This document shows positions 542 through 39,383 of a DNA stretch of 45,417 nucleotides, piece by piece. This DNA is from a virus (taxonomy: Duplodnaviria; Heunggongvirae; Uroviricota; Caudoviricetes), in IMG/VR virus record IMGVR_UViG_2706794697_000014. One strand, given 5' to 3'. Below the pieces are notes generated by a model. The model had not been told where the DNA came from. It was given only the letters and a program-made list of their open reading frames with translations, and did no database searches. Both the position numbers and the translations under genes were made by a program. The stretch's first letter is position 1. Every line of letters starts with the position of its first letter.

Positions 542-1579
542 TTAACGCTTATCCGCCACCAGTTTGAGCGCGTGTTCCAGCACATTAATGTCTGCACCCG
601 CTTTATGGGCATTTTCACTTAAATAACGCCGCCACTGCCGCGCGCCAGGAATACCCTGGAACAAGCCCAACATATGCCGGGTAATATGGCCGAGATACGT
701 CCCCTGGCTGAGTTCACGCTCAATGTACGGATACATGGCGCGCACTACCGCCACCGGATCGGCATCGGTATCCGAGGAACCAAAGATCTCCCGGTCTACC
801 GCCGCCAGAATACCCGGATTCTGATACGCCTCGCGCCCGACCATCACGCCATCCATATGTTGCAGGTGTGCTTTGGCCTCTTCCAGCGACTTGATACCAC
901 CGTTAATCGACATTGTCAGATGCGGAAAGTCACGCTTCAGTTGATACACACGCGGATAATCGAGTGGCGGGATTTCACGGTTTTCTTTCGGGCTTAACCC
1001 CGAAAGCCAGGCTTTACGTGCGTGGATGATAAACATCTCACACTCGCCTTTGCCGGAAACGGTGTTGATGAAATCGCAGAGAAATTCATAGCTGTCCTGG
1101 TCATCGATGCCAATACGCGTTTTCACCGTCACTGGAATCGACACCACATCGCGCATCGCTTTCACGCAGTCGGCAACCAGCTGCGCATTACCCATCAGAC
1201 ACGCACCAAACATGCCGTTCTGCACCCGGTCAGACGGGCAGCCGACATTCAGGTTGATCTCATCATATCCACGCGCTTCTGCCAGCTTCGCACACTGTGC
1301 CAGCGCCGCCGGATCGCTACCGCCGAGTTGCAACGCTACCGGATGTTCTTCTTCACTGTACGCCAGGTAATCACCTTTACCGTGAATAATCGCCCCTGTG
1401 GTCACCATTTCGGTATACAGCAACGTATTGCGGGAAAGCAGACGCAAGAAATAGCGGCAATGTCTGTCCGTCCAGTCGAGCATAGGAGCAATGCTAAACC
1501 GAGAACTCCAGTAAGCGCCAGTTTTTTCAGGCATCACGCTGGTTTGATTAGTTTTCTGTGTTTCAGGATTATCGTGCAT
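542..1579 (-). CDS. dusA: tRNA-dihydrouridine synthase A (host; 5' end adjoins prophage)
   Basis: 345-aa ORF with Dus/TIM-barrel sequence ([28 protein letters not shown]) recognised as E. coli DusA. Confidence 0.9.
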
Positions 1580-1611
1580 TTTTGAACATTTCAGGCTATT
1601 TTTCTCGCGTT

Positions 1612-1647
1612 AGGTTCCCGCACAGGTTCCCACGCTTTATGGGAACC
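1612..1647. promoter_or_regulatory. three rGGTTCCC repeats (two direct, one inverted) in the dusA-int divergent intergenic region
   Basis: aGGTTCCC at 1612-1619 and 1624-1631, inverted GGGAACC at 1641-1647, between divergent start codons. Confidence 0.3.
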
Positions 1648-1667
1648 CGAAATAACGAGGTCGTGTA

Positions 1668-2765
1668 ATGGCGTACTATAACATAGAGAAACGACTAAAA
1701 TCCGATGGCACACCACGCTATCGCTGTAATGTGATTATCAAAGAAAAAGGTGTTATCACTTACAGGGAAAGCAAAACATTCCCTAAACATGCTCATGCCA
1801 AAACATGGGGCGCACAGAAAGTGATGGAATTAGATCTATATGGCATTCCATCATCAAATGCTGTTGACGGACTTACAGTCCGTGACTTACTACACAAATA
1901 TTTAAATGACCCAAATGCCGGAGGTAAAGCAGGCCGTACTAAAAGATATGTGCTGGAACTGCTTATGGATAGTGACATCTCCGCGATCAAACTATCTGAA
2001 CTGACAGAAAATGACGTAATTGAACATTGCAGGCTAAGAAACAACGCTGGTGCAGGCCCAGCAACAGTCAGCCACGATGTTAGTTATCTTGGCAGTGTTC
2101 TGGATGCGGCAAAACCTGTATACGGAATCAATTACACATCAAACCCGGCGAAAAGCGCTCGTCCATATCTACTTAAACTCGGTTTGATTGGTAAATCAAA
2201 CCGTCGTAATCGTAGACCAGCATCTGATGAACTGAACATGCTCATTGAAGGCCTTCAACAACGATCTACTCATAAATGCTCAAAAATTCCGTTCGTTGAT
2301 ATCCTCAAATTTTCTGTGTGGTCCTGTATGCGAATCGGAGAAGTATGCCGGTTACGATGGGAAGATCTCGACCAGGAACAAAAATCTATACTAGTAAGAG
2401 ACAGGAAAGATCCACGTAAAAAGGAAGGCAACCATATGAAAGTTGCCTTGCTTGGGGAAGCCTGGGATATCGTCCAGCGACAACCCAAAAAATCAGAATT
2501 CATTTTTCCATATAACAGCACTTCTGTTACCGCAGGATTTCAGAGGGTAAGAAGCAAATTAGGTATTAAAGATCTGAGATACCATGATTTGCGTAGAGAA
2601 GGGGCAAGTCGCTTATTTGAGGCTGGTTTTAGTATTGAGGAAGTCGCTCAGGTTACAGGGCATCGTTCATTAAACGTGCTATGGCAGGTATATACCGAAC
2701 TGTATCCGAAATCTTTACATAATCGTTTTGAAGAACTCCAAAGGAGCAGAAATAAGACCTCTTGA
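1668..2765 (+). CDS. int: tyrosine-type phage integrase (dusA-associated)
   Basis: 365-aa ORF, GAGG RBS 8-11 nt upstream; C-terminal catalytic region (HDLRREGASRLFEAGFSIEEVAQVTGHRS) typical of tyrosine recombinases; divergent from dusA 5' end. Confidence 0.9.
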   Translation: MAYYNIEKRLKSDGTPRYRCNVIIKEKGVITYRESKTFPKHAHAKTWGAQKVMELDLYGIPSSNAVDGLTVRDLLHKYLNDPNAGGKAGRTKRYVLELLMDSDISAIKLSELTENDVIEHCRLRNNAGAGPATVSHDVSYLGSVLDAAKPVYGINYTSNPAKSARPYLLKLGLIGKSNRRNRRPASDELNMLIEGLQQRSTHKCSKIPFVDILKFSVWSCMRIGEVCRLRWEDLDQEQKSILVRDRKDPRKKEGNHMKVALLGEAWDIVQRQPKKSEFIFPYNSTSVTAGFQRVRSKLGIKDLRYHDLRREGASRLFEAGFSIEEVAQVTGHRSLNVLWQVYTELYPKSLHNRFEELQRSRNKTS

Positions 2766-2793
2766 CACTGTTTATCCATACAGTTAAAAATAA

Positions 2794-2813
2794 TACTGTA
2801 TACAAATACAGTG
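2794..2813. promoter_or_regulatory. LexA (SOS) box upstream of dinI-like gene
   Basis: TACTGTATACAAATACAGTG matches CTGT-N8-ACAG consensus, 13 nt upstream of the dinI-like start; possible -35 TTGACA at 2762-2767. Confidence 0.6.
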
Positions 2814-2825
2814 TAGGGGACTTTT

Positions 2826-3074
2826 ATGCGTATTGAAATCTGCATAGCCAAAGAAAAAATGACTAAAATGCCAACCGGTGCTGTGGATGCGTTAAAGGAA
2901 GAATTAACCCGACGCATCAGTAAACGTTATGACGATGTAGAAGTGATCGTAAAAGCCACCAGCAACGATGGCCTTTCTGTTACGCGCACCGCTGATAAAG
3001 ATTCAGCTAAAACTTTTGTTCAGGAGACTCTGAAAGATACCTGGGAGTCTGCTGACGAGTGGTTTGTTCATTAA
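2826..3074 (+). CDS. DinI-like damage-inducible protein
   Basis: 82-aa product [10 protein letters not shown]...[16 protein letters not shown] resembles DinI/MsgA family (C-terminal TWESADxWF); preceded by a LexA box. Confidence 0.8.
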
Positions 3075-3105
3075 GTTCATCATCTCTGGACACCATTCAC
3101 TTGTA

Positions 3106-3135
3106 TTGACTTTAAGATCATTAAATTGTAATAAT
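3106..3135 (+). promoter_or_regulatory. candidate sigma70 promoter for structured leader and TM-RT operon
   Basis: TTGACT (3106-3111), 18-nt spacer, AATAAT (3130-3135) with TG two nt upstream; predicted start about 3141. Confidence 0.3.
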
Positions 3136-3140
3136 TCAAA

Positions 3141-3277
3141 GGGATGGGGCAGGTTTTTCCTCTTGCGCATGCAAGGGCGGCTCTGATAATGAACAGTAAT
3201 ATTTTACTGTTGAGCTTATGCTCACTGATCCTGCCGGGCAGGATGTTCAACGGTTCCAATATATCCTGCCCCTTCCG
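3141..3277 (+). ncRNA. candidate structured non-coding RNA upstream of the RT module (retron msr-msd-like or DRT-type ncRNA)
   Basis: 13-nt inverted repeats GGGATGGGGCAGG (3141-3153) and CCTGCCCCTTCC (3265-3276, 12/13 complementary) flank three internal hairpins: CTTGC-GCAT-GCAAG (3162-3175), AACAGTAA-TATT-TTACTGTT (3192-3211), perfect palindrome ATCCTGCCGGGCAGGAT (3228-3244); no ORF. Confidence 0.3.
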
Positions 3278-3296
3278 CTTTTAAAAAGGATCTTTT

Positions 3297-3848
3297 ATGC
3301 ATGACAATATTTGGTTTACATATAAAGCACGTATCCAAGCGCACCATCGACTAGAATGGCTTGAAAAACACTCTCAATTTATCCTCGTTTGGTATGCTAT
3401 ATTGAGTGCGGTACTTTCAATTGTAACGTTGCGATTTCCAAAGGTTCTAGGAGATAATACAGATGTCGTTGCGGCGATACTTTCAGTGGCTCTACTGGGT
3501 ATTTCTCTGATCGTATCTAACCTAGATTTTCGTGGTCGAGCAATAGCCATGAGAAGGAATTATATTGCACTACAGCGACTCTATTTTGACATTACCACCA
3601 GTCAACAGTTATCTCTTGAACAGAAAGAAAAATATTTTAATTTGCTCAATGAGGTTGAGAATCACCGTGACATAGATGATAAAATTTCAAGGGTAACTCA
3701 AGTTGGACTTAAGACGAGGATCCCCACACAAAAAGAAAAAATAATTGTTATTTTATGGATATTACTTCGAATATTTATTACTGCCGCACTTTATATACTC
3801 CCATTAATATATCTTTGGATTGACTATGACTGCAAGCAGAATTTTTAA
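3297..3848 (+). CDS. small multi-pass membrane protein, putative effector partner of the RT
   Basis: 183-aa ORF, AGGA RBS; hydrophobic segments FILVWYAILSAVLSIVTL, VVAAILSVALLGISLIVSNL, IIVILWILLRIFITAALYILPLIYLWI; AT-rich; overlaps RT start by 23 nt. Confidence 0.7.
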   Translation: MHDNIWFTYKARIQAHHRLEWLEKHSQFILVWYAILSAVLSIVTLRFPKVLGDNTDVVAAILSVALLGISLIVSNLDFRGRAIAMRRNYIALQRLYFDITTSQQLSLEQKEKYFNLLNEVENHRDIDDKISRVTQVGLKTRIPTQKEKIIVILWILLRIFITAALYILPLIYLWIDYDCKQNF

Positions 3849-5196
3849 AAAGTCATTCTCGAAAAAAAATCTTCTAAAAGTATACTCTGAAAAAATCAAA
3901 GAATCAGGAGCGATTGGCATAGATCGGATTCGCCCATCAAAACTTGATTTGACAATAAAAAATGAGATCACTTTCATTTTTGAAAAGGTTAATTCTGGCA
4001 ATTACAAATTTACAGCATATAAAGAAAAATTAATATCTAAAGGCGCTAACTCTACACCCAGACAGATTTCCATACCAACTGCTAGGGACAGAATTACTCT
4101 TAGAGCTCTCTGTGAATGCCTTACGGAAATATATCCTAAGTCCAGATTAAAACTACCACATACAGTAATTGACTCATTGAAAGAAGCATTAAACAACAGT
4201 CTATATGCTGAATATGCAAAAATAGATCTTAAAAGTTTCTATCCTTCAATTGAACATAAATTGATAATTAATGCAATAAAAAATAAAATTAGAAAAAAAG
4301 AAATTAGACAGTTAATAACATCATCATTAATCGTGCCTACTGTAAGTGGAACCACAGGAAGCAAAGGTATCCCTAATAATACCAGAGGAGTACCTCAGGG
4401 ATTAGCGATATCAAACATTTTAGCTGAAATATCACTATCTAATTTCGATGATGAAATCAATAAAATGCATGACATATGGTACATGCGATACGTTGATGAC
4501 ATTCTTATTTTAACACCAAAATATCAAGCAACAAAAATAGCTTCTCATATCATTGATAAGCTTCAATCATTAAATTTAAACCCACATCCATTAAATGAAG
4601 AGAACTCAAAATCCAAAGTAGGCAGCTTGGATGAAAGTTTCAACTTTTTGGGCTACCACATAAAAAATCGAGAATTATTGATAAAACATGAGAGCATTCT
4701 TAGATTTGAGTCATCCTTAGCAAAAATTTTTACTGCATATAGACACGCTCTACTACAAGCTAAAAATAAGCGCGATAAAGAACGAGCTGTTGCATATTGT
4801 CAGTGGAAACTAAATCTTAGAATTACGGGATGTGTGTTTGAAGGTAAACGATTGGGATGGGTATCGTACTTCTCACAAATAACGTCAACAGCTCAACTTC
4901 GAGCTGTTAATCATACGATCAATAATCTTATCCGCCGATTCGGCCTTTCATCAGAAATAAAACCAAAGTCTTTGATTAAAACTTTCTATGAACTCCGCAG
5001 GGGTAGAGCGGAGACTTTTAAATACATACCTAACTTTGACAATCTACATATATCTCAGAAACGAGAAATTGTTTCTATGTGGATAGGGAAAGAGAATGAA
5101 AAAAAACTTAGCAATAGTGAAATAGAGAGAAAATTTAAATTTAAAATTGCGAAATCAGTAAAAGAGCTTGAAGAGGACATTTCAGGGATATCATAG
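3826..5196 (+). CDS. reverse transcriptase (defence-associated/retron-like; family unassigned)
   Basis: RT motifs in translation: ISIPTARDRITLRAL (motif 1-2), KIDLKSFYPSIEH (3), GVPQGLAISNILAEI (4), YMRYVDDILIL with YVDD catalytic box (5), FNFLGYHI (7), thumb-like GKRLGWVSYF; ATG at 3826 within track ORF 3820..5196. Confidence 0.85.
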   Translation: MTASRIFKKSFSKKNLLKVYSEKIKESGAIGIDRIRPSKLDLTIKNEITFIFEKVNSGNYKFTAYKEKLISKGANSTPRQISIPTARDRITLRALCECLTEIYPKSRLKLPHTVIDSLKEALNNSLYAEYAKIDLKSFYPSIEHKLIINAIKNKIRKKEIRQLITSSLIVPTVSGTTGSKGIPNNTRGVPQGLAISNILAEISLSNFDDEINKMHDIWYMRYVDDILILTPKYQATKIASHIIDKLQSLNLNPHPLNEENSKSKVGSLDESFNFLGYHIKNRELLIKHESILRFESSLAKIFTAYRHALLQAKNKRDKERAVAYCQWKLNLRITGCVFEGKRLGWVSYFSQITSTAQLRAVNHTINNLIRRFGLSSEIKPKSLIKTFYELRRGRAETFKYIPNFDNLHISQKREIVSMWIGKENEKKLSNSEIERKFKFKIAKSVKELEEDISGIS

Positions 5197-5308
5197 ATAT
5201 GTAATCCATTAAATCCTTTATATATAAAGCAATAAACACACTATTTAAATTCACAAATCAGCCGCAGTATCCTGCCATGACAAGTTGCTGCGGCATATCA
5301 CAAAACGA

Positions 5309-5893
5309 TTACTCCATAACAGGGACCGCAGGCCACTCAATATCAGGTGCAGTTGATGTATCAACACGGTTCAGCAACACCCGATACTTCTTCCAGGCTT
5401 CCAGCAACGAGTTTTCTTCCTCCGTTGCGATCTCCAGATCTACAGCATCCTGAAGTGGCGCTATATGCTCACTGGCTACCTGCATCAGGCTGTTTTTTGT
5501 TTCTTCCGCCTCCCGGATCCGGAACAGTTTTTCTGCTTCCGTATCCTTCACCCAGGCTGTGCCGTTCCACTTCTGAAACTCCCCTTCCGGGGATAACCAG
5601 GTAACATTTTCCGGTAACGGACCGAGTTCAGAAATAAATAACGCGTCCCCTGACGCTACGTCATAAACCGTTTTACCCCGATGGTCTTCAACGAGATGCC
5701 ACGATGCCTCATCACTGTTGAAAACAGCCACAAAGCCAGCCGGAATATCTGGCGGTGCAATATAGGTACTGTTTGCTGGCAGACCTGTATGAGGCGGAAT
5801 ATATGCGTCACCTTCACCAATAAATTCATTAGTTCCGGTCAGCAGATTATAAATTTTTATGGTCCGTGGTTGTTCACTCATTCTGAATGCCAT
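5309..5893 (-). CDS. tfa: tail fibre assembly protein
   Basis: 194-aa product [18 protein letters not shown]...[10 protein letters not shown] closely matches lambda Tfa as recalled. Confidence 0.9.
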
Positions 5894-8800
5894 TATGCAA
5901 GCCTCACAATATAGTTAAATGCGATGTTTTTGACGGTGTTTTCCGCGTTACCCGCAGCGTTAACGGTGATGGTATGTCCATGTGAACCAATCGCAACGGA
6001 GTGCGTATGAGCACCAATACCGACAGTATGCGCGTGTGCACCTGCAGATGCTGCTGTGCCGGACAGTGAGTGGCTATGATTACCATCTGTACTGGTATTC
6101 GCTAACCACCCCGTAGACATACCTACTGAGCCTTGTACACCCCAGGTATTTTGACCTGAGCTTGTATAACCATATTGATAAGTATCTTTAAAAACACTGG
6201 GGTTAAATCGACGGCCATCTCTATGGCTGTGATTACCAGCTGCATTCGTGCTGCCACTTAAACTATGGGTATGCGCACCAGTGTTATTCGTGGATTTAGT
6301 GCCGTAATCAAACGACGATGTGGTTTTCGTCCCCAAATCCGTACTGGATGCGCTGGCGCTGTGGGTATGCGATTTAATGCCGTCCTGTTCCTGAGACAAT
6401 ACGGCCCGACCACTGGCAGGTTTGCCCTTAATCGTCCAGCCACGCATATCAGGGATCACACCTGACGGATAAACGGCTGCAAGTTTCGGGTAAGCAGATT
6501 TGTCAAAAGTCTGTCCCTGCATCAGGGCATAACCAGACGGAACGGTATCTGATGGCCACGGGATTGGTGCACCGACTGGGTAGCTTTCTGGTGGAAGATT
6601 TTTCGAGGTATAAACTTCTGCCCAGTCTTCCTCAAAACCATAACCGTCTCTTGAAGAACGGTAGAACAGACCACCATTTCTGTAATGCGCCTTCATCTGC
6701 AAGGTCCGGCAACTTCCGACTCCGGTATAGAAGTTAACCAGAATATAGCTGTTGCCAGAGCGGGTGACATTGTAAGCGCCTGATTCGGCATTCCATGGAA
6801 CGCCACCATCCGCATCGGCATATGTATCCGTTGCCCTTCTGGCAAAAGCAGCCACATGCGCGGCGGTTAAAGTAATATCTTTGGAACCATCAAACTCAAC
6901 ACCAGAAACCAGTCTTGGCGTTTGCAGCTTTGTTGCTGTCAATGCGTTACCGTTCAGACTTGCAGACAGTTTGGTTCCAATAACCAGTTCGCCGGTTGCG
7001 TTATCAATAACAAACGGTCTTAATGTATTCCAGCCACCATAAACATCACCTTGATTGGTAAGCAGCAGGTAAGTTTTAGCGCCATCATTACGCCATAATG
7101 CACCATACTCCCCACCTATCATTCGAATCTGATTACCACCACGCGCTACAATTTCGTCTGTGGCAAAAAGTTTTTTGCACGACAAGTTATCGTTAACGAT
7201 TAACGAATGAGACTCATAAAAACCACGCCCACTCTTAAAATCAAGGATAACGTCCGCCGCGATACATTCAGTCGCCGGATTTGTTGCCCCAAACTTATAG
7301 GTCGTATCATTAACAACGAGATCAGCACCAGGTGCGGATATTGACAGGCCATCTTCGAGAAACGCAAAAACAGGGAAAGCAGCGCCATCAACATAGAACA
7401 CAGAGCGCAAATCATCGCCCTTATTACTCATCATTATTGAGTGGATGGCTCGTTCATTGTTTTGATATTGCCAGAACATTCCATAAGCATAACGCCCCCT
7501 GTCAGTCCAGCCACCAGGCATAACAAATCCGTTAAACTCGCAGTTATTCATCGGATCGCCTGCGATTCGCGTTGCCGTGGTGATAATGACCCTTGATGCC
7601 AGTTCGCTTACTGAGCCAGCAGAACGCATAACAACAACAGGGTAATATTTTCCAGATGTTGCACCTGCAGGAGCGTTAACCCGCACATAACGCATACCAC
7701 GCTTATCAGCAAAGTCTGTTTTACTGACCGCGTTAATGTTGTTCAGGAAGCGTCCCTTATCGGGTATATCAGCGCCGTTCTGGTCTTTCTGCAGACGTTT
7801 CTCAGCATTGTCATTGGCTGCTTTTACTGCCTTTGGCGTTGCCGCCAGCGTTTCAGACGTGCTATTAGTCGCACTACTGAGCTGTACTATCCCCTTTTTC
7901 GTCGTGCTCGCATCCTCAAGCGCCACGGCGGATGCAATATCCTCTGCACGTTTTGCCGCTGTCTCGGCGCGCGTTGCCGCGGATTCCGCCGTACTTTTGC
8001 TCTGTGCTGCCGCCGTCGCACTGCCAGCAGCCTCTGTCGCCTTCGTGGATGCTGTCGTGGCGCTGCCCTTCGCTGCGGACGCTTGTCTGGTCGCCTCATC
8101 TTTTGAAGCAGACGCCGATGATGCCGATGACGCCGCCGAACTGGCGGACGATGCGGCAGCCGTTTTTGAGGATTCTGCGCTGGTCTCCGACGCTTTCGCG
8201 TTCGTCTCCGATGTCTTCGCTGCGGAAGCAGACCTCGCTGCTGCACTGGCCTGTTCAGTGGCTTCGCCAGCCTTCGTTGTGGCTGTTGAAGCGGACGATG
8301 CGGCGCTTTCTGCCGATTTTCCGGCGGCGCTAGCACTGGCTGAGGCCTGCCCGGCACTTGTTGACGCTGCACTGGCAGACGACGCAGCCGCTGTTTTTGA
8401 GCCTGCTGCTGCGGAGGCACTCTGTGCTGCTGCCGTTTCAGAGGACTTAGCGTTTGTCTCAGACGTCTTTGCCGCCTTCGCGGAATTTCCTGCCGCCGTT
8501 GCCGAGGAAGCGGCATTACTGGCGCTCGAAGCTGCGCTCGTTTCTGATAATTTTGCCGCCTCTTTTGAAGCCGACGCATCTCTGGCTGAGGTGGCTGCTT
8601 CTGACGCTTTCGTGGTCGCGGTGGATGCAGAAGTGGCAGCTGATTGTTGTGACGCTGCCGCATTCGTTTCTGACGTTTTCGCCGCACCGGCTGATGTGCT
8701 GGCATCGCTGGCTGATTTCTTCGCGGCTGCCGTGTTCTGTGCCACCGCGGACGCGTTACGCGCCACCTCTTCCACCATCAGTTCAAAGCGGCGCAGTGCC

Positions 8801-9108
8801 TCAGGACGGGCATCATCCTCCGTCATGGCACCGAGAAAATCATTCAGCGTACCGGGTCGGGAATCTTCATACACGGTGATGGTCCCGGCATGTGACGGCG
8901 GGAATCCTTCCACCAACAGAATAACGCTGTACTGACCGTACTCAACGTCCATGCTGTAACGCCCGGCTTCATCCGGATTTTCTGAGGCCAGCGTGTTCAC
9001 CACCACCGTGGTGCTGTTACGTTTTGCTTTCAGCTGGATTGTGCAGTTCTGTACCGGTTTTCCTGTGCCGTCTTTCAGTACACCTGAAATCTTTACTGCC
9101 ATATTCAC
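5893..9108 (-). CDS. stf: side tail fibre protein (mosaic)
   Basis: 1071-aa ORF; N-terminus [26 protein letters not shown] and C-terminus ...[28 protein letters not shown] match lambda Stf; Ala/Ser/Thr-rich repeats and His-rich GAHTHS repeats. Confidence 0.9.
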
Positions 9109-9112
9109 CCCA

Positions 9113-9140
9113 CAAAAAAGCCCGCCTGAACCGGCGGGCT
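9113..9140 (-). terminator. intrinsic terminator downstream of lom
   Basis: stem AGCCCGCC/GGCGGGCT, loop TGAACC, followed on minus strand by T6. Confidence 0.5.
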
Positions 9141-9166
9141 GTCATAACACTGTGTTACCTGGCTAA

Positions 9167-9766
9167 TCAGAATTTATAACCGACACCCACGATGAAACCG
9201 TCAGTGCGCCAGTCGCCACTGCCGGAGCCTTCATAAGCAATATCAATGGCCACGGATTCGGTCGGGTTAAACTGCACGCCAGCTCCCCACGCCAGAGACG
9301 TGTTGCTGTGGCGACCGTCATCACTTCCGGTCAGCACATCGTGCGTTTTCCCCTTGTTGTCAGTTACGCGGAGATAATCCCCGGAGAAAGTCGACACACG
9401 GCTGTAAGCCACACCCGCCATCGCATACGCGCTGAACCATTCATTCACGCGCACAGACGGCCCCGCCATTACGCTGAACCAGCGGTTACGAACGGAATCT
9501 TCATGCCAGCGGGTATCGCTGTAACGGGTCAGCTGGCGATTCTTGTCTCCTGCATAGCTGAATGACGTCACCAGCCCCAGTGTGTCCGTAAACTCATAAC
9601 GGTATTTCACGTTAATCCCGTTCAGATCATCACTGCCGGGAACGTTGGTCCGGGCATGAAGATACCCCGCGCTCAGCGTGGACTGATGTTCAGACGCCCA
9701 TGCAGGCGCACCGGATACGGCCAGACAAATGGCTGCGGACAAAATTGCTGCACAAACTTTACGCAT
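9167..9766 (-). CDS. lom: Lom/Ail/PagC-family outer membrane protein
   Basis: 199-aa product with signal peptide MRKVCAAILSAAICLAVSGAPAWA and C-terminal beta-barrel ending GVGYKF; flanked by terminators. Confidence 0.85.
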   Translation of the reverse strand: MRKVCAAILSAAICLAVSGAPAWASEHQSTLSAGYLHARTNVPGSDDLNGINVKYRYEFTDTLGLVTSFSYAGDKNRQLTRYSDTRWHEDSVRNRWFSVMAGPSVRVNEWFSAYAMAGVAYSRVSTFSGDYLRVTDNKGKTHDVLTGSDDGRHSNTSLAWGAGVQFNPTESVAIDIAYEGSGSGDWRTDGFIVGVGYKF

Positions 9767-38554: not shown

Positions 38555-39383
38555 GACGATGCCCTCCGCTGATATTCAGGAGACGGTGAATATGAAAATT
38601 AGCCTTATCCGCCAGACGAATACGTTCAGCTTGCAAGTTAAGAAGGGTTTCTACCAGAACCTGATGTGCCTGCGGATCCGAAAGAGTTACCTTGCGCAGA
38701 GCACGTAGTGCAGTTGTTACATAACTGAGTTTATGTAAGTCTTCATCATTCAGACGAGTGAGGGCTGGGACAGTAGCCATGATGGCAGCCTCCTTGATCG
38801 GTGAAATACTTCCACCACCGGAAACGCCAATTTCGCTGGTGGTGAACTGAACGGGGTTGGCGTAACCGGTGATCAAGGAAACCGGCGCATCTTTCGATGC
38901 CCCCGCCCAGCCCACCATAACTTTGATGTGAGCAAATGCGGACGATAAAAAAGACGCTGGCGCGTCATATATCGCCTTGATCAATTCCAGGACGCCAATC
39001 CCGGCACCCGCTTTATAAGGTGCCTGAACAGTGTAACGTCCCGGAATGGCAGAATCAATGTGCTGGTGGTCCTTCACACTCAACAAAATCACGCCTGAAT
39101 TTCCACAAAGGACTAAAGCACTCATGCGGGTAGTCTTTGCGAAGATAGATAACGCGCTGTGTTTCTGGCTCCCAACGAATAACATGAACATAAAGTCCTC
39201 TTCCGTCACGAAACCAGCGGTTAAGTTCCTGCACAACTCGCCCCCCACAGTCAGGTAAAGTTCTCTGTGGTTACTTACAGCCAGGTGATTTGGTAATCTG
39301 CATTCATGCCGTAACAACAGGTGTTCAGCGACGCTGACCACCAGCTGTTGCGACAAACGGTTATTTGCCGTTAAACTGTTCAT
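38547..39383 (-). CDS. hypothetical early protein
   Basis: 278-aa ORF in early-right operon; no motif I can name. Confidence 0.45.
   Translation of the reverse strand: MNSLTANNRLSQQLVVSVAEHLLLRHECRLPNHLAVSNHRELYLTVGGELCRNLTAGFVTEEDFMFMLFVGSQKHSALSIFAKTTRMSALVLCGNSGVILLSVKDHQHIDSAIPGRYTVQAPYKAGAGIGVLELIKAIYDAPASFLSSAFAHIKVMVGWAGASKDAPVSLITGYANPVQFTTSEIGVSGGGSISPIKEAAIMATVPALTRLNDEDLHKLSYVTTALRALRKVTLSDPQAHQVLVETLLNLQAERIRLADKANFHIHRLLNISGGHRHA

Follow-up and report, generated by a model that had tools for sequence, protein, structure and literature searches.

The pairing of a UG17 reverse transcriptase (RT) with a SLATT protein is now named DRT10 (PMC12632851; 10.64898/2026.04.29.721553). The 2022 UG/Abi survey had no UG17 non-coding RNA (ncRNA) among the ncRNAs that it reported; since October 2025 this RNA has been described, mutationally dissected and solved by cryo-EM, and the DRT10 literature that we rely on consists of preprints (2025-2026). 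DRT10 ranks among the most striking recent discoveries in phage defense: its compact bacterial RT operates in the manner of telomerase, to which a relationship has been proposed. In Eco3DRT10, a 137-nt RNA whose gene immediately precedes SLATT was identified by RIP-seq as a binding partner of the RT (Tang et al. 2025, PMC12632851). Nucleotides 107-115 of this RNA form the template CAAUGAUUC, which is followed by CAAU at 116-119, and the RT product consists of long tandem repeats of the 9-nt unit GAATCATTG that are primed from the enzyme's own C-terminal serine (Ser456) and obey an A-B-A' rule (PMC12632851). The DNA is protein-linked and RNase-insensitive and enters gels in a proteinase-dependent manner, and the RNA alone, when combined with RT and dNTPs, yields repeat DNA in vitro (PMC12632851). 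Three matching bases are enough, and the U110A substitution at the fourth A position kept defense and altered the repeat accordingly (PMC12632851).

The cryo-EM structure of the Eco3 complex contains two RTs and one ncRNA (2:1) that is anchored via SL5 and SL1, and it reveals the SL1 plus SL5 fold (Ramirez et al. 2026, 10.64898/2026.06.29.735271). The second RT monomer has Loop A of the RNA in its active site and makes only a short, abortive cDNA there, starting opposite U43 (10.64898/2026.06.29.735271). SL5 has a boundary role (PMC12632851; 10.64898/2026.06.29.735271), and inverting its sequence leaves defense intact in Eco3 (10.64898/2026.06.29.735271). Tandem-repeat cDNA and three-part defense have been shown in the literature for Eco1DRT10, Eco2DRT10 and Eco3DRT10, six further homologues and the E3659 system; control by SbcB and independent expression of the ncRNA have been reported for a DRT10 system (10.64898/2026.04.29.721553), and the RNA of another DRT10 system complements in trans. 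Proposals for the control of SLATT include models in which the repeat DNA either neutralizes or activates a SLATT pore and ExoI/SbcB together with a phage SSB-like protein set the threshold.

Locus organization

We analyzed a stretch of 45,417 nt of Caudoviricetes DNA, hereafter the window, in which a structured element is located within a 222-nt gap (3075-3296) that extends from a DinI-like gene to a SLATT-RT operon. The locus is organized as follows.

2826-3074, + strand: DinI-like gene, upstream of the element
3106-3135, + strand: sigma-70-like promoter, with -35 TTGACT (3106-3111), an 18-nt spacer and an extended -10 TGt-AATAAT (3130-3135) (promoter scan, 10/12 with TG)
3142-3278, + strand: probable DRT10 (UG17) ncRNA of the Eco3 type, 137 nt, ends set by homology to the RIP-seq-defined Eco3DRT10 ncRNA
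3297-3848, + strand: SLATT_5 two-transmembrane effector gene, 183 aa (PADLOC RTasSLATT, 1.5e-56; Pfam SLATT_5, 1.3e-28)
3826-5196, + strand: UG17 / DRT10 reverse transcriptase gene, 456 aa from the ATG at 3826, in an ORF that opens with TTG at 3820 (PADLOC RT_UG17, 1.1e-158)

The RT matches the PADLOC RT_UG17 profile with 526.6 bits (residues 3-458 of the protein against positions 1-429 of the 429 in the profile); its second-best PADLOC family is Drt3a (3.2e-38), and it also matches Pfam RVT_1. A YVDD motif is located at residues 222-225, and the C-terminus reads ...EEDISGIS, ending in Ser456. The YVDD motif, R371, K385, Y388 and Ser456 are all present, and none of them varies among 14 homologues with identities as low as 59% (alignment A1); R371, K385 and Y388 contact SL5 and SL1 and are essential in Eco3 (10.64898/2026.06.29.735271). 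The SLATT gene begins 19 nt past the ncRNA on the same strand as the RT gene, its Shine-Dalgarno sequence (AAGGA, 3286-3290) starts 8 nt past the inferred 3' end of the RNA, and its own end (3848) overlaps the start of the RT gene (3826). No ORF of at least 60 aa overlaps 3075-3296 on either strand (ORF scan). As judged from sequence, the UG17 RT, the adjacent SLATT and the upstream ncRNA form a tripartite DRT10 system.

Fold of the element

The 137-nt element folds with a minimum free energy (MFE) of -57.1 kcal/mol, as compared with -39.3 +/- 3.9 kcal/mol for 200 dinucleotide shuffles, none of which folds as well (z = -4.53). RNA folding had been proposed as a check in the first-pass annotation, which saw here a structured, RT-associated ncRNA beside an RT operon and named DRT ncRNA models; the stability of the fold and the presence of the SLATT and UG17 RT genes bear out that view. 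In the MFE structure and in the RNAalifold consensus, a GC-rich closing helix encloses four hairpins and two open loops. The features of the element are listed below together with their Eco3 counterparts, which are numbered with nt 1 at 3142.

3142-3153, + strand: 5' arm of the closing helix SL1, GGATGGGGCAGG, pairs with 3265-3276 (MFE)
3154-3158, + strand: U-tract that includes the counterpart of Eco3 U15
3158-3180, + strand: SL2 hairpin (MFE and consensus fold)
3181-3191, + strand: Loop A, conserved single-stranded junction between SL2 and SL3 (homologue alignment)
3184 / 3185, + strand: counterparts of Eco3 U43 / G44
3192-3211, + strand: SL3 hairpin, AACAGTAA / TTACTGTT (MFE)
3202-3205, + strand: U-tract whose last U is the counterpart of Eco3 U64
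3212-3223, + strand: SL4 hairpin, GAGC / GCTC (MFE)
3227 / 3245, + strand: counterparts of Eco3 G86 / G104
3228-3244, + strand: SL5, the 17-nt palindrome ATCCTGCCGGGCAGGAT, template-boundary hairpin by homology (MFE, homologues)
3246-3247, + strand: 5' linker, Eco3 U105-U106, not copied and setting the SL5-template distance (role as in Eco3); TT invariant in 27 homologues
3248-3256, + strand: template A-B, CAAC-GGTTC (CAAT-GATTC in Eco3), by positional homology to Eco3 C107-C115
3248, + strand: counterpart of Eco3 C107
3252, + strand: counterpart of Eco3 G111
3257-3260, + strand: A' realignment segment CAAT, by homology to Eco3
3257, + strand: counterpart of Eco3 C116
3261-3264, + strand: 3' linker, Eco3 A120-U123
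3265-3276, + strand: 3' arm of SL1, CCTGCCCCTTCC, pairs with 3142-3153 (MFE); the Eco3 SL1 3' arm likewise runs from 3265

The two arms of SL1 are 12 nt each and lie 111 nt apart, and they are complementary at 11 of 12 positions with a single U/U mismatch. The 13-nt inverted repeat described in the first-pass annotation is real and corresponds to this closing helix, with its complementarity corrected from 12/13 to 11/12, G3141 facing G3277 and being unpaired. That annotation counted three internal hairpins where four are found (SL2 to SL5), and the palindrome that it read as a perfect 17-bp structure is indeed present at 3228-3244 but folds as 7 bp with a 3-nt loop. The flanking residues G3227 and G3245 are invariant in the 27 homologues and are the counterparts of the Eco3 G86-G104 Hoogsteen pair. 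Loop B is located between SL5 and SL1, and within it the A-B-A' repeat CAA(C)-GGTTC-CAA(T) (3248-3260) begins 4 nt past SL5. Specifically, an A-B-A' scan of the window's loop recovered CAA...CAA with a 9-nt period, as well as a second direct repeat, GTTC-AACG-GTTC, whose 8-nt period overlaps the template loop.

Comparison with the Eco3DRT10 allele

From dinI to the end of the RT gene, the window is 97.3% identical to the corresponding region of IHE3034 (locus L045), with no gaps. The RTs of the two alleles are identical at 446 of 456 residues (98%), and SLATT differs from that of the Eco3-type allele at 4 of 183 residues. Across the part of the Eco3DRT10 RT sequence (OKX54664) in Table S1 of PMC12632851, the IHE3034 RT matches it, agreeing with OKX54664 wherever IHE3034 and the window differ. 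The IHE3034 allele also carries the exact Eco3 template, CAATGATTC, in flanks that are otherwise identical. Among the entries considered in the table of the same authors, RTs with the N-terminal allelic residues of the window are present and are flagged as ncRNA-associated (PMC12632851).

Within the ncRNA, the window differs from the IHE3034 allele at 3 of 137 positions (3166, 3251 and 3253). C3166, a U in Eco3, produces a G-C pair in SL2 in place of G-U, whereas C3251 and G3253 turn the Eco3 template CAAUGAUUC into CAACGGUUC, such that two of the three ncRNA changes between these E. coli alleles sit in the 9-nt template. Base 3141, just upstream of the RNA, is an A in the IHE3034 allele. The idea that the ncRNA diverges more than its neighbors was considered and rejected, its divergence being 2.2% as compared with 2.5-2.7%. 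Eco3 numbering fits the window only when nt 1 is placed at 3142, where every published landmark falls on the right base; the RNA should therefore comprise 3142-3278, one base off the coordinates in the first-pass annotation.

We consider it very probable that 3142-3278 (+ strand) is the ncRNA of a DRT10 (UG17 RT plus SLATT) anti-phage system and a natural allele of the Eco3DRT10 ncRNA. The two share locus type, gene order, the 137-nt length, five stem-loops, Loop A, the linkers, the SL5 boundary and A', and they differ by the three RNA substitutions and by the repeat, which is predicted to be GAACCGTTG in the window as compared with GAATCATTG in Eco3. For the window allele, we infer the ends of the RNA, its binding by the RT and its cDNA product by homology to Eco3DRT10. 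The element is thus of a known kind: biochemical and structural descriptions exist for its class, its subtype and a locus with 97% nucleotide identity. Spotting it from raw sequence was a correct call on an important RNA class; the detection was right, the retron framing attached to it was wrong, and the element adds no new kind of system.

Complete E. coli genomes were searched for exact matches, using for Eco3 a 53-mer in which its template was rebuilt within the flanks of the window. The Eco3-template 53-mer is present in 34 of 5426 genomes and the window version in 154 of the same 5426, which makes the latter the commoner allele; the two versions together account for all 188 leader-carrying genomes.

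Conservation across homologues

A search with the RT alignment yielded 44 loci, taking one genome per species. In 27 of these a recognizable homologue of the element is located directly upstream of SLATT, and all 27 encode an RT that is at least 50% identical; they originate from Xenorhabdus, Photorhabdus, Buttiauxella, many Pseudomonas, Stutzerimonas, Stenotrophomonas, Bordetella and one MAG. Alignment A2 contains 27 sequences, i.e. 25 non-duplicate loci together with the window and the IHE3034 allele, and spans Enterobacterales, Pseudomonadaceae, Stenotrophomonas and Bordetella. Its RNAalifold consensus has the same architecture of SL1, SL2-SL5 and two open loops. The first-pass annotation had staked its reading on conservation of the structure in homologous loci, and the structure is conserved: compensatory double changes occur in 17 of 34 pairs, a value that none of 500 shuffles matches. 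In total, 86 cells of A2 hold double changes (24 +/- 5 in shuffles), and 97.7% of cells are paired, a share that drops to 50-56% if the partners are shifted by 1-3 columns. None of the 500 shuffles attained the observed value on four of five measures.

All five helices are 95-100% paired in A2. Compensatory changes are found in 9 of 11 consensus pairs of SL1, 2 of 8 pairs of SL2 (99.1% of cells paired), 3 of 6 pairs of SL3 (100% of cells paired) and 2 of 4 pairs of SL4. The most conserved columns are single-stranded and comprise Loop A (..GGCGG.TCT.ATAA..), the G before SL5 and the GATGTTC that follows SL5; in the cryo-EM structure, these same bases touch the RT or flank the template (10.64898/2026.06.29.735271). 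In Loop A, whose sequence is the same in the window and the Eco3-type allele, C3183 and T3184 are invariant in the 27 homologues. In 25 of 27 homologues, the loop after SL5 carries the direct repeat (T)CAA...(T)CAA, whose period is 9-11 nt and whose middle segment varies, and by its sequence this repeat is the published A-B-A' signature. The template of the window also occurs in a Xenorhabdus locus (L001).

A covariance model built from A2 (R1) has a single match in the 45-kb window, at 3138-3289 (131.5 bits, E = 2e-28). R1 found no match at distant UG17 loci (31-34% identical, mostly alphaproteobacterial), which carry a different structured RNA; this outcome is consistent with the published observation that a model for one subtype fails to detect the others (10.64898/2026.04.29.721553). 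Covariance-model scans had also been suggested in the first-pass annotation, and those with Rfam 15 returned no family for the element, either at E <= 10 across 2500-5600 or at the gathering threshold across the whole window. As Rfam 15 has no match for it, this RNA will keep turning up in genome scans as a structured leader without explanation for as long as no model has been deposited. The Rfam 15 scan of 2500-5600 also produced a chance-level match to the lncRNA family MEG8_1 (15.1 bits).

Transcription and alternative functions

The promoter-like site upstream of the element ends 6-7 nt before the closing helix, and the expected start of transcription, ~7 nt past the -10 element at 3130-3135, falls at the foot of this helix, in agreement with the earlier proposal that transcription begins at the first inverted repeat. 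Enterobacterales homologues have a -35 of TTGACT/TTGATT, and in 22 of 27 homologues the first SL1 pair is preceded at a distance of 4-8 nt by a TAnnnT hexamer. As the promoter scan detected nothing promoter-like on the + strand from 3136 to 3297, the ncRNA is probably also the 5' end of the operon transcript.

This arrangement raises the question of whether the element is, rather than a template, a leader of the SLATT-RT mRNA that acts in cis alone and does nothing but regulate expression of the operon (an attenuator, a thermosensor or a protein-binding 5' UTR). On one side of the element is the only good promoter and on the other the Shine-Dalgarno sequence of SLATT, the operon mRNA probably begins with the element, and in the window a TTTT (3279-3282) directly follows SL1. 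However, no hairpin-plus-U-tract or other terminator after SL1 is conserved in the homologues, which argues against the attenuator that the first-pass annotation offered as its other reading, and conservation is highest in single-stranded loops that include the A-B-A' repeat, which is unexpected for an attenuator. In addition, Eco3 RNA, RT and dNTPs suffice for repeat DNA in vitro, and trans complementation has been seen with the RNA of another DRT10 system. A leader function in place of templating is therefore very unlikely, whereas a leader role in addition to templating may exist.

A second alternative concerns the octamer ATCCTGCC, which occurs at 3228 and again at 3263, as the first-pass annotation had pointed out. 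It allows the 3' arm of SL5 (3236-3244) to form a 9-bp helix with 3263-3271 in place of SL1 pairing, and the element could in principle toggle between an active and an inactive conformation. This perfect 9-bp helix is possible in the window and in the Eco3-type allele, and in these two it is longer than in shuffled controls (p about 0.005). When the longest duplex between the SL5 3' arm and downstream sequence was determined for the 27 homologues against 1000 shuffles each, however, the mean best run was 5.6 as compared with 5.2 in shuffles, with only the two E. coli alleles standing out. We therefore rejected the alternative helix as a conserved feature; the octamers are there as described, and their alternative pairing is confined to E. 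coli alleles. The published inversion of SL5, which abolishes the complementarity, had no effect on defense, and cryo-EM shows the SL1 plus SL5 fold (10.64898/2026.06.29.735271). A conformational switch is accordingly highly improbable.

The chance that the element is a retron msr-msd, with its inverted repeats acting as a1/a2 and 2'-OH priming from a G beside the 5' repeat giving branched msDNA, is close to nil. Its geometry of terminal inverted repeats enclosing hairpins beside an RT is superficially similar, both are structured RNAs with terminal complementarity next to an RT and both serve anti-phage defense, and several homologous RT records bear the name 'retron-type reverse transcriptase'. 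Retrons nevertheless belong to a different RT clade, prime from the 2'-OH of a branch-point G and copy a long msd once, with no tandem repeat. The best model for the RT of the window is UG17, with no retron-named RT model among the best 25 PADLOC families, and the gene order ncRNA-SLATT-RT together with an RT that has a conserved terminal priming serine fits DRT10. Rfam holds an msr family, and at E <= 10 the element has no match in Rfam. The branched RNA-DNA product anticipated by the first-pass annotation also disagrees with near-identical Eco3, which primes from the C-terminal serine of its RT (PMC12632851; 10.64898/2026.06.29.735271) and whose DNA is protein-linked and RNase-insensitive and has 9 nt of an internal loop as its template (PMC12632851). 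Retron identity, including the a1/a2 analogy, was rejected on RT family, the lack of an msr match and priming chemistry.

Comparison with other systems

With the element assigned to DRT10, three further systems offer useful comparisons. The UG17-A system E3659 DRT10 from Escherichia sp. (Sanchez-Nieto et al. 2026, 10.64898/2026.04.29.721553) has the same ncRNA-SLATT-RT order, tandem-repeat cDNA and dependence on SbcB, and we count as a likeness that it needs its basal stem both for a stable RNA and for binding by the RT. Its ncRNA, by contrast, belongs to another sequence family and is 143 nt long with six stem-loops, and its repeat is the 7-nt AGTAATA; the gene span of its RT implies ~445 aa. 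DRT9 (UG28) is likewise a Class 2 UG RT with an upstream structured ncRNA, a template loop and protein priming, and the overall shape of its RNA is similar according to Tang et al. (PMC12632851). It differs in its poly-U template, which gives poly-dA, in tyrosine priming, in forming an RT hexamer and in not requiring SLATT as core effector. Telomerase RNA and TERT share a short internal template followed by an alignment segment (A-B-A'), a structured 5' boundary element and processive repeat addition. In telomerase, however, priming occurs from a chromosome 3' end and not from a protein serine, there is one RT per RNA, both RNA and protein are much larger, and the role is chromosome maintenance and not defense.

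Proposed mechanism and template variation

By analogy to Eco3DRT10, one RNA in the window allele would scaffold two RT monomers. The monomer at Loop A would make only a ~10-nt product, whereas the monomer at Loop B would start DNA from the hydroxyl of its own Ser456 opposite C3257 (C116). This base corresponds to the Eco3 initiation site, and C is at least 90% conserved at its column in the 27 homologues. The RT would then copy from 3256 back to 3248, its stopping point being set by a constant distance to SL5. The growing DNA would end in GTTG, and this 3' end would unpair and re-anneal on the A' segment CAAU (3257-3260) via three Watson-Crick pairs and a dG-rU wobble. Repetition of this cycle would produce kilobase-length single-stranded DNA, (GAACCGTTG)n, covalently attached to the RT. 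This repeat DNA, controlled by ExoI/SbcB of the host and by factors of the phage, may gate the membrane effector SLATT, which would lead to abortive infection.

The copied unit CAACGGUUC predicts a cDNA repeat of 5'-GAACCGTTG-3'. In the window, the fourth base differs between A (CAAC) and A' (CAAT), such that the two match at three positions plus the wobble, whereas in Eco3 they match at four. The overlapping 8-nt GTTC repeat means that repeat register or precision could differ from that of Eco3, with precision being lower if the boundary slips; a repeat in the GTTC register with its 8-nt period would be of the CGTTGAAC type. By analogy to Eco3, the 9-nt register is favored over the 8-nt one by the published geometric rule, under which synthesis halts 2 nt from G104, and by the fact that the U110A substitution is tolerated.

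The only new angle that the locus provides is this natural polymorphism of the template. The window has the commoner E. coli allele, for which the repeat GAACCGTTG and a wobble in the realignment segment are predicted and which could provide a naturally occurring check on the A-B-A' and geometric-boundary rules that have been published. Between genera, the B segment differs, as does the period (9-11 nt), in surroundings that are invariant. One speculative and rather unlikely explanation is that function depends on the sequence of the repeat DNA, for instance because the cognate SLATT recognizes it or because it helps to evade phage or host nucleases and SSB-like triggers, and that this sequence is under diversifying selection. 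If this were true, the window allele, with its imperfect A/A' match and overlapping 8-nt register, would yield a product with other sequence and precision and confer a phage specificity other than that of Eco3.

Prophage setting

The module belongs to a lambdoid prophage that is integrated at dusA, and it is found at the left end, where the order is integrase, SOS-boxed dinI, DRT10 module and then tail-fiber assembly and tail-fiber genes on the opposite strand. A tblastn examination of the 44 loci found neither dinI nor integrase beside DRT10 in other genera, and on this sequence evidence the dinI/integrase linkage appears limited to this E. coli prophage. The DRT10 module looks like exchangeable cargo. 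In phage 2H10, a DNA invertase is annotated at the same dinI/tail-fiber junction.

Genomic context of the DRT10 module

Comparison with the identical locus of E. coli AR434 places the start of the window in dusA, with a tyrosine integrase gene next to it; this arrangement indicates that the prophage carrying the DRT10 module (ncRNA, SLATT_5 gene and UG17 RT gene) is inserted at dusA. In E. coli IHE3034, the same dinI-ncRNA-SLATT-RT module adjoins prfC and is found without the tyrosine integrase of the window. The features upstream of the module are as follows.

542-1579 (-) and 1668-2765 (+): dusA/tyrosine integrase region, identical locus in E. coli AR434
2762-2791: promoter-like site of the DinI-like gene
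2796-2814: LexA-box-like palindrome
2826-3074: DinI-like gene

When window positions 1600-9200 were compared with phage 2H10 (matches H32/H33), the dinI and tail-fibre flanks were found to be common to both, with 96.5% identity, and a DNA invertase is annotated in the phage at the dinI/tail-fibre junction, where the window has DRT10. No record in the phage collection covered at least 80% of this query. The dinI/tail-fibre junction of lambdoid phages seems to be a site at which the DRT10 module is carried as exchangeable cargo.

The palindrome TACTGTATACAAATACAGT (CTGT-N8-ACAG) lies 5' of the DinI-like gene, and is reported as overlapping the gene's promoter-like site. Between dinI and the DRT10 ncRNA the predictions show no terminator-like site, which makes read-through from SOS-induced dinI into the defence module conceivable.

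Template allele and internal repeat of the ncRNA

Two of the three differences between the ncRNAs of the window and IHE3034 fall inside the 9-nt template (3248-3256). The window template, CAACGGTTC, is also present in Xenorhabdus santafensis, and may therefore be the older of the two E. coli alleles. The ncRNA also contains a direct repeat, GGGCAGGTTTTTC (3147-3159) and GGGCAGGATGTTC (3236-3248), with 85% identity, in which the 5' arm of the closing helix SL1 and its linker resemble the 3' arm of hairpin SL5 and its linker. Pseudo-symmetry of the DRT10 RNA has been reported from cryo-EM (10.64898/2026.06.29.735271); the repeat may echo it, or else may be a peculiarity of the E. coli lineage.

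RNAs of distant UG17 loci

Eight distant UG17 loci (L030, L032, L033, L036, L037, L039, L042 and L043; RT 31-34% identical), mostly from Alphaproteobacteria with one from a Flavobacteriaceae MAG, contain a ~120-nt RNA whose 3' end lies 14-46 nt upstream of SLATT. Its plan is that of the window ncRNA, but its sequence is unrelated, and it was not detected at these loci by R1, the covariance model built on 27 aligned sequences, the window ncRNA among them. In the distant RNA, the closing helix is GGYGGGC/GCCCRCC, the internal hairpins show compensatory changes, and the 3' loop bears an AAU/AUU...AAU/AUU repeat with a period of ~11-12 nt.

Other Rfam matches in the window

5352-5550 (-): IS009 (RF02111), full-length match, 224.6 bits
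38835-38922 (-): C4 antisense RNA, 82.3 bits, gathering level
38947-39023 (-): isrK, 64.2 bits, gathering level, adjoining the C4 match

The IS009 match sits within a tail-fibre-assembly gene (5309-5893, -), and probably reflects the sequence from which the family was built rather than a separate RNA gene. The adjacent C4 antisense RNA and isrK matches have the layout of a prophage antirepressor control region of P1/P7 type.
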